Source of the DNA: Escherichia coli
GTDB taxonomy: Bacteria; Pseudomonadota; Gammaproteobacteria; Enterobacterales; Enterobacteriaceae
Assembly: GCF_044324875.1 (NCBI RefSeq)
Contig: NZ_CP172185.1
DNA length: 64,000 bases
Direction: 5' to 3' (one strand)
Made by a program: the position numbers and the translations under genes. Below are positions 62,644 through 62,720 of the stretch, one piece after another. The notes below the pieces were generated by a model. It ran no database searches and was not told where the DNA came from. It was given only the letters and a program-made list of their open reading frames with translations. How positions within the stretch are numbered: position 1 is the stretch's first letter; the number at the start of each line of letters is the position of its first letter.

Positions 62644-62720
62644 CGCGGGGTGGAGCAGCCTGGTAGCTCGTCGGGCTCATAACCCGAAGGTCGTCGGTTC
62701 AAATCCGGCCCCCGCAACCA
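62644..62720 (+). tRNA. metY: Initiator tRNA-fMet (anticodon CAT)
   Basis: CGCGGGGTGGAGCAGCCTGGTAGCTCGTCGGGCTCATAACCCGAAGGTCGTCGGTTCAAATCCGGCCCCCGCAACCA; three G-C pairs in anticodon stem, C1-A72 mismatch. Confidence 0.95.

Follow-up and report, generated by a model that had tools for sequence, protein, structure and literature searches.

The window analysed here, a stretch of 64,000 nucleotides from Escherichia coli (contig NZ_CP172185.1), carries close to its end a gene for tRNA-Met with a CAT anticodon, which was called by ARAGORN with the anticodon at position 35 and recovered by the Rfam tRNA model RF00005 with 61.4 bits against a gathering score of 29 (Table 1). This initiator gene stands alone: argG lies upstream of it on the opposite strand, the rimP leader and rimP-nusA come after it, and the proximity of argG identifies the locus as that of metY and not of metZWV. 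The only other tRNA gene in the window is leuU, coding for tRNA-Leu (GAG) at 58777-58863, which sits just downstream of secG as it does in K-12.

Table 1. Features of the metY locus (coordinates of the window)
Feature	Position	Strand	Basis
argG, 447-aa ORF, divergent from metY	60953..62296	-	ORF, K-12 annotation, colinearity with K-12
Promoter-like site upstream of metY: TTGACA, 18-nt spacer, TATAAT, 12/12 matches	62522..62551	+	consensus scan, pattern match only
Second promoter-like site, directly upstream of the tRNA: TTTGCA, 18-nt spacer, TAGAAT, 9/12 matches	62599..62628	+	consensus scan, pattern match only
metY, initiator tRNA-Met (CAT), tRNAfMet1-type	62644..62720	+	ARAGORN, Rfam RF00005, K-12 alignment
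Site separating tRNAfMet1 (G, m7G in the mature RNA) from K-12 tRNAfMet2 (A)	62690..62690	+	
rimP leader RF01770, between metY and rimP	62809..62909	+	Rfam, 102 bits, E = 2.5e-17
Terminator-like hairpins within the rimP leader	62842-62865, 62890-62902		terminator scan
rimP CDS, TTG start, 150 aa, first protein gene of the metY-rimP-nusA-infB operon	62927..63379	+	K-12 rimP alignment

The surroundings of the gene are those expected for this locus. Two sites that resemble sigma-70 promoters, both pattern matches only, precede metY, and rimP is called as a gene at the equivalent position in the matching genomes. The window shares with K-12 metY the locus, the promoter region, the rimP leader and the downstream operon, with four differences in about 700 bp. 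Apart from the one within the tRNA, the other three are all upstream of it, and alignment of the rimP leader region revealed no difference from K-12. Within 62300-63000 these three variants (window/K-12) are 62491 C/T, 62508 G/A and 62540 A/G, the last of which falls between the two hexamers of the perfect TTGACA/TATAAT site, within their 18-nt spacer. Over 62500-62900 the window has 100% identity with many genomes, so that at least the 62508 and 62540 variants are common.

The base on which this work is centred, at 62690, reads G, the second G of the GG in CCCGAAGGTCGTCGG at 62683-62697, as an earlier note on this DNA had stated for the variable loop of metY; direct reading of the sequence, the ARAGORN call and alignment all agree on it. 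It corresponds to nucleotide 47 of the 77-nt gene and, because the D loop has one extra residue (17a), to canonical position 46. The minimum free energy structure given by ViennaRNA is a cloverleaf, in which this nucleotide occupies the centre of a variable loop of 5 nt (linear positions 45-49). The fold also displays the features of an initiator tRNA. C1 stands unpaired opposite the A at linear position 73 (canonical 72), a C1 x A72 arrangement described as an initiator feature (PMC7949028), and the anticodon stem contains three G-C pairs (linear 30-32 GGG with 40-42 CCC), in line with the three consecutive pairs G29-C41, G30-C40 and G31-C39 at the bottom of that stem (PMC5389676). An A11:U24 pair, another initiator hallmark, can be read from the sequence as well. 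Together with the CAU anticodon presented in the cloverleaf, these traits identify the gene as an initiator, and the G encoded at position 46, in place of the A that defines tRNAfMet2, assigns it to tRNAfMet1.

The gene was aligned with the four initiator genes of MG1655, namely metY (3318213-3318289, - strand), metZ, metW and metV. The sole variable column in the five-gene alignment is nucleotide 47, which is A in K-12 metY and G in the window, metZ, metW and metV, so the window gene is identical to the K-12 metZ/W/V genes at 77/77 positions and to K-12 metY at 76/77. As a single-base allele call in an otherwise identical gene, the result leaves no room for chance. The earlier note had stated that K-12 metY reads GAAGATCG and metZ/W/V GAAGGTCG at this site, and this is indeed what we find in the MG1655 record and what the literature describes for K strains, where tRNAfMet1, encoded by metZWV, contains m7G46 and tRNAfMet2, encoded by metY, contains A46 (PMC3017606; PMC5389676; PMC8887418). 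The alignment to K-12 metY and metZ that the note had proposed as a check could have found G in K-12 metY too; it found A. Its description of the window metY as a gene of the metZWV type is thus correct. With all 77 nucleotides in common, including G46, the window gene is expected to yield the same mature tRNA as the K-12 metZ, metW and metV genes (tRNAfMet1, m7G46), from which it differs in its genomic setting: it is a single copy between argG and rimP-nusA-infB, whereas metZWV is a three-gene operon between mltA and amiC.

The same allele was already known from E. coli B. According to Mandal & RajBhandary 1992, as cited in PMC3017606, all four initiator genes of that strain encode tRNAfMet1, and a recent alignment of K-12, B, C, W, Crooks and Nissle 1917 considers G46 as canonical, with K-12 metY as the sole exception at the site (bioRxiv 10.64898/2026.04.16.719103). 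The difference between the K-12 and B versions of metY is therefore not new, having been published in 1992 and restated in the 2026 preprint. The parallel with E. coli B drawn in the note was confirmed with a metY-specific probe of 96 nt (19 nt of leader plus the tRNA), for which REL606 matches the window at 100%, G46 included, with no difference in the gene. The genomic background of the two strains does differ, the window showing 98.6% identity to K-12 and, over the regions tested, no more than 99.1% to any of the complete E. coli genomes.

The distribution of both alleles among complete E. coli genomes was examined with the window and K-12 versions of this 96-nt query. A longer query of 401 nt was too coarse for the purpose, as a single mismatch still falls in the band of 99% or more, and the 96-nt probes were used instead, together with a 40-nt probe in which any 28-base megablast seed has to include the A. 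The window version gave exact matches in 4,821/5,425 complete RefSeq genomes, REL606 among them, and the K-12 version in 365/5,426; the 40-nt A probe likewise detected 365 genomes, at one chromosomal place each. Overall, metY carries G at position 46 in 93% of the complete E. coli genomes. No complete E. coli genome showed A46 in more than one initiator gene with the 40-nt probe. The earlier note had placed the G in many non-K-12 strains, which is true but understated, given that the A occurs in so few genomes and that the sampled carriers look K-12-derived.

About 239 genomes gave no exact match to either 96-nt query, which raised the possibility of a third allele or of a hidden A46 among them. 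This was rejected, since the four genomes sampled (4/4) all carry G46, together with one SNP located either in the leader or in the D loop, and the 40-nt probe again returned 365 carriers. In three of these genomes (FEX669, 'strain 10' and MEI4O1-23) the change is a C-to-T at the position equivalent to window 62635 (-9, in the 5' leader of metY), which probably accounts for most of the genomes matching neither probe. In the metY of E. coli PA2 (NZ_CP145944.1), T replaces C at linear nucleotide 17 (C17 to U17, in the D loop; window 62660). Several other genera usually have U17 in their initiator tRNA, with 28 copies of GCAGCTTGG among the matches listed in a scan across species, and an A17 variant has been reported in the metW of Nissle 1917 (bioRxiv 10.64898/2026.04.16.719103). 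Position 17 would thus seem to be a second site at which this initiator tRNA varies in nature.

The A46 carriers offered a very homogeneous panorama. A set of 60 evenly spaced genomes, out of about 64 of the 365 inspected by name in all, was composed entirely (60/60) of K-12 derivatives by name or of genomes with the size of K-12 (4.50-4.78 Mb). Among them we find MG1655, DH10B, MC4100, HB101, C600, XL1-Blue, J53-type strains, EMG2 and NBRC 3301, as well as O16:H48 mouse-gut passages, Keio strains and recipients of transconjugants. The presence of A46 already in EMG2 indicates that the mutation is older than the divergence of the usual laboratory sublines. A few sampled carriers have food, animal or plant labels, although their genomes are still of 4.50-4.78 Mb. 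Four A46 genomes with natural-source labels were compared with MG1655: SF10 (NZ_CP079767.1, duck cloacal swab), EC06 (NZ_CM169496.1, human gut), USML2 (NZ_CP011124.1, oil-palm leaf tissue) and YZ22MPE54 (NZ_CP139337.1, pork). All four are 0-2 SNPs away from MG1655 over 21,763 bp, a segment over which the window shows 260 mismatches. They were consequently discarded as natural A46 lineages and belong to the K-12 clone; all four have the appearance of laboratory strains of K-12, such as recipients used in conjugation, or contaminants.

Two further approaches addressed the ancestral state of the site. A synthetic query, made of the exact 3-kb K-12 haplotype (nusA'-rimP-metY-argG) with G replacing A, was matched at 100% by at least 25 natural isolates. 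The occurrence of G on the exact K-12 haplotype in natural isolates puts A46 at a single mutational step from a common natural haplotype. On a much wider scale, the A variant CCCGAAGATCGTCGGTTCAAATCC had 0 matches among 100,044 species-representative genomes (bacterial and archaeal, one per species). A control pattern that admitted C, G or T there hit at least 120 loci, and each of the 183 matches listed across species representatives (183/183) is G, including those of E. albertii, Citrobacter, Enterobacter, Providencia, Photorhabdus, Vibrio, Shewanella and Pseudomonas. Altogether, these comparisons show G46 to be the ancestral and essentially universal state. A46, which defines tRNAfMet2, is derived from it by one point mutation that is restricted to the K-12 clone, so that it is K-12 that departs from the rule and not the strain analysed here. 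None of the results speaks against this reading. We therefore consider it practically certain that the gene is a metY with the ancestral, species-typical G46, coding for tRNAfMet1, that A46 is private to K-12, and that the strain most likely has a single initiator species.

What this allele means for the RNA can be outlined from the known biochemistry of E. coli. The 77/77 identity with metZ/W/V implies that the window metY encodes tRNAfMet1, whose G46 would be methylated to m7G46 by the SAM-dependent TrmB (YggH), the enzyme that makes this modification with SAM in E. coli (PMC7949028). The A46 of K-12 metY is not convertible to m7G, and K-12 has in this way a second initiator species separable on gels (PMC5389676), which this strain should not have. 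All of its initiator genes would yield one tRNA species, as in E. coli B, an expectation that follows from the lack of genomes with A46 at more than one place in the collection. The base call, the identity with metZWV, the distribution of the alleles across genomes and the ancestral state are direct observations; the m7G46 and the single-species pool we infer, since neither trmB nor metZWV is part of the window and DNA does not reveal modifications.

In tRNAs in general, position 46 would have a tertiary role through the 13-22-46 base triple. No statement on this triple was found in PMC8887418. The G and A alleles have identical predicted cloverleafs, both at -30.3 kcal/mol (ViennaRNA), and any difference between G46 and A46 would lie in modification and tertiary contacts, not in secondary structure.

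Such a difference could be thought to matter for the physiology of the cell. The A46 of K-12 would then be an adaptation that keeps a quarter of the initiator pool independent of methylation, and initiation would differ between both kinds of strains under nutrient or one-carbon limitation. The requirement of SAM and YggH/TrmB for m7G46 (PMC7949028) and the share of tRNAfMet2 in K-12, about 25% of the initiator pool (PMC8887418; PMC5389676), speak for this idea, as does recent work which, as far as its citation in the preprint goes (bioRxiv 10.64898/2026.04.16.719103), suggests a possible contribution of the metY isoform to fitness when nutrients are limiting. However, the allele is private to one clone and absent from all the other species scanned, which fits a mutation specific to that clone and of neutral or nearly neutral effect; the secondary structure predicted, and its energy, do not change with the base, and E. 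coli B manages without A46, as do almost all natural strains. On balance we regard a physiological role as unlikely. If it were true, the whole initiator pool of strains like this one would depend on m7G46 formation by TrmB and SAM, with K-12 keeping about a quarter of its pool methylation-independent, and studies of initiation made in K-12 under stress for nutrients or one-carbon units would be unrepresentative of the species. Even so, the novelty would lie in a loss or gain by K-12, and there would be nothing new in the window's own allele.

The opposite polarity, with A46 as the ancestral base of metY and the G of the window, E. coli B and other strains acquired secondarily, for instance through gene conversion from metZWV, is for practical purposes excluded. 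Identical paralogues located 370 kb away (K-12 coordinates) are possible donors in principle, and the window metY matches them at 77/77 positions. Yet the conversion would need to have happened again and again, in each lineage other than K-12, in conflict with the total absence of the A variant among the species representatives and the G of all relatives listed, with the confinement of A46 to 365 genomes of which those tested or named are K-12 clones, and with the natural isolates that combine G with the exact 3-kb K-12 haplotype. An error of sequencing or assembly, such as metZWV reads collapsed onto metY, is conceivable in principle given that the four initiator genes are near-identical repeats which short-read assemblers can mix, but it is very unlikely here, as it would have had to turn a rare allele into the one carried by 93% of complete genomes in a lineage 1.4% divergent from K-12, between flanks that are unique and colinear with K-12, and in agreement with a separate assembly (GCA_040713135.1) 99.97% identical to the window over 7.6 kb including metY.

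Ancestral G46 in a tRNAfMet1 gene being the preferred reading, the observation itself is correct, minor and ordinary. The earlier note had offered the base as a minor strain marker, and it does mark the source as not K-12, but nothing more: it does not tell natural strains apart. The quantitative by-product is of wider use. A46 was found only in actual or apparent genomes of the K-12 clone (365/5,426 E. coli genomes, 0/100,044 species), which makes position 46 of metY a one-base diagnostic for K-12 ancestry, able to flag K-12-derived genomes deposited with environmental or clinical labels. In the same line, the textbook initiator tRNA pool with two species is a peculiarity of K-12.

Regarding the genomic background, the window from 20318 to 63999 aligns with MG1655 3,316,934-3,360,616 over 43.7 kb without any break in colinearity, at 98.58% identity, and no disruption by IS elements appears in this alignment to K-12. 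Shigella, considered as the source in view of the modest identity to complete E. coli genomes (98.1-99.1% at best), accordingly finds no support. The closest complete RefSeq E. coli genome reaches 99.1% over 39001-64000 and 98.1% over 1-20400, a region over which all 5,425 complete genomes fall in the 95-99% band. The draft assembly mentioned above (GCA_040713135.1) shows its 99.97% identity in contig JALMOL010000001.1. From these identities, the source lineage seems to be poorly represented among finished genomes. The colinearity with K-12 ends exactly at the stop codon of gltD (20318-21736, - strand), with the junction at about 20135-20318. At 183 bp from gltD there is an ORF of 362 aa (19046-20134, - strand), followed by the nan genes, dcuC (as annotated in matching genomes) and the zapE, degQ region, and the K-12 genes gltF, yhcA, yhcD and yhcE::IS5 have no match anywhere in the window. 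Since many E. coli genomes match 1-20400 in one piece, this arrangement is common, and it is K-12 that has an extra segment of fimbrial type.
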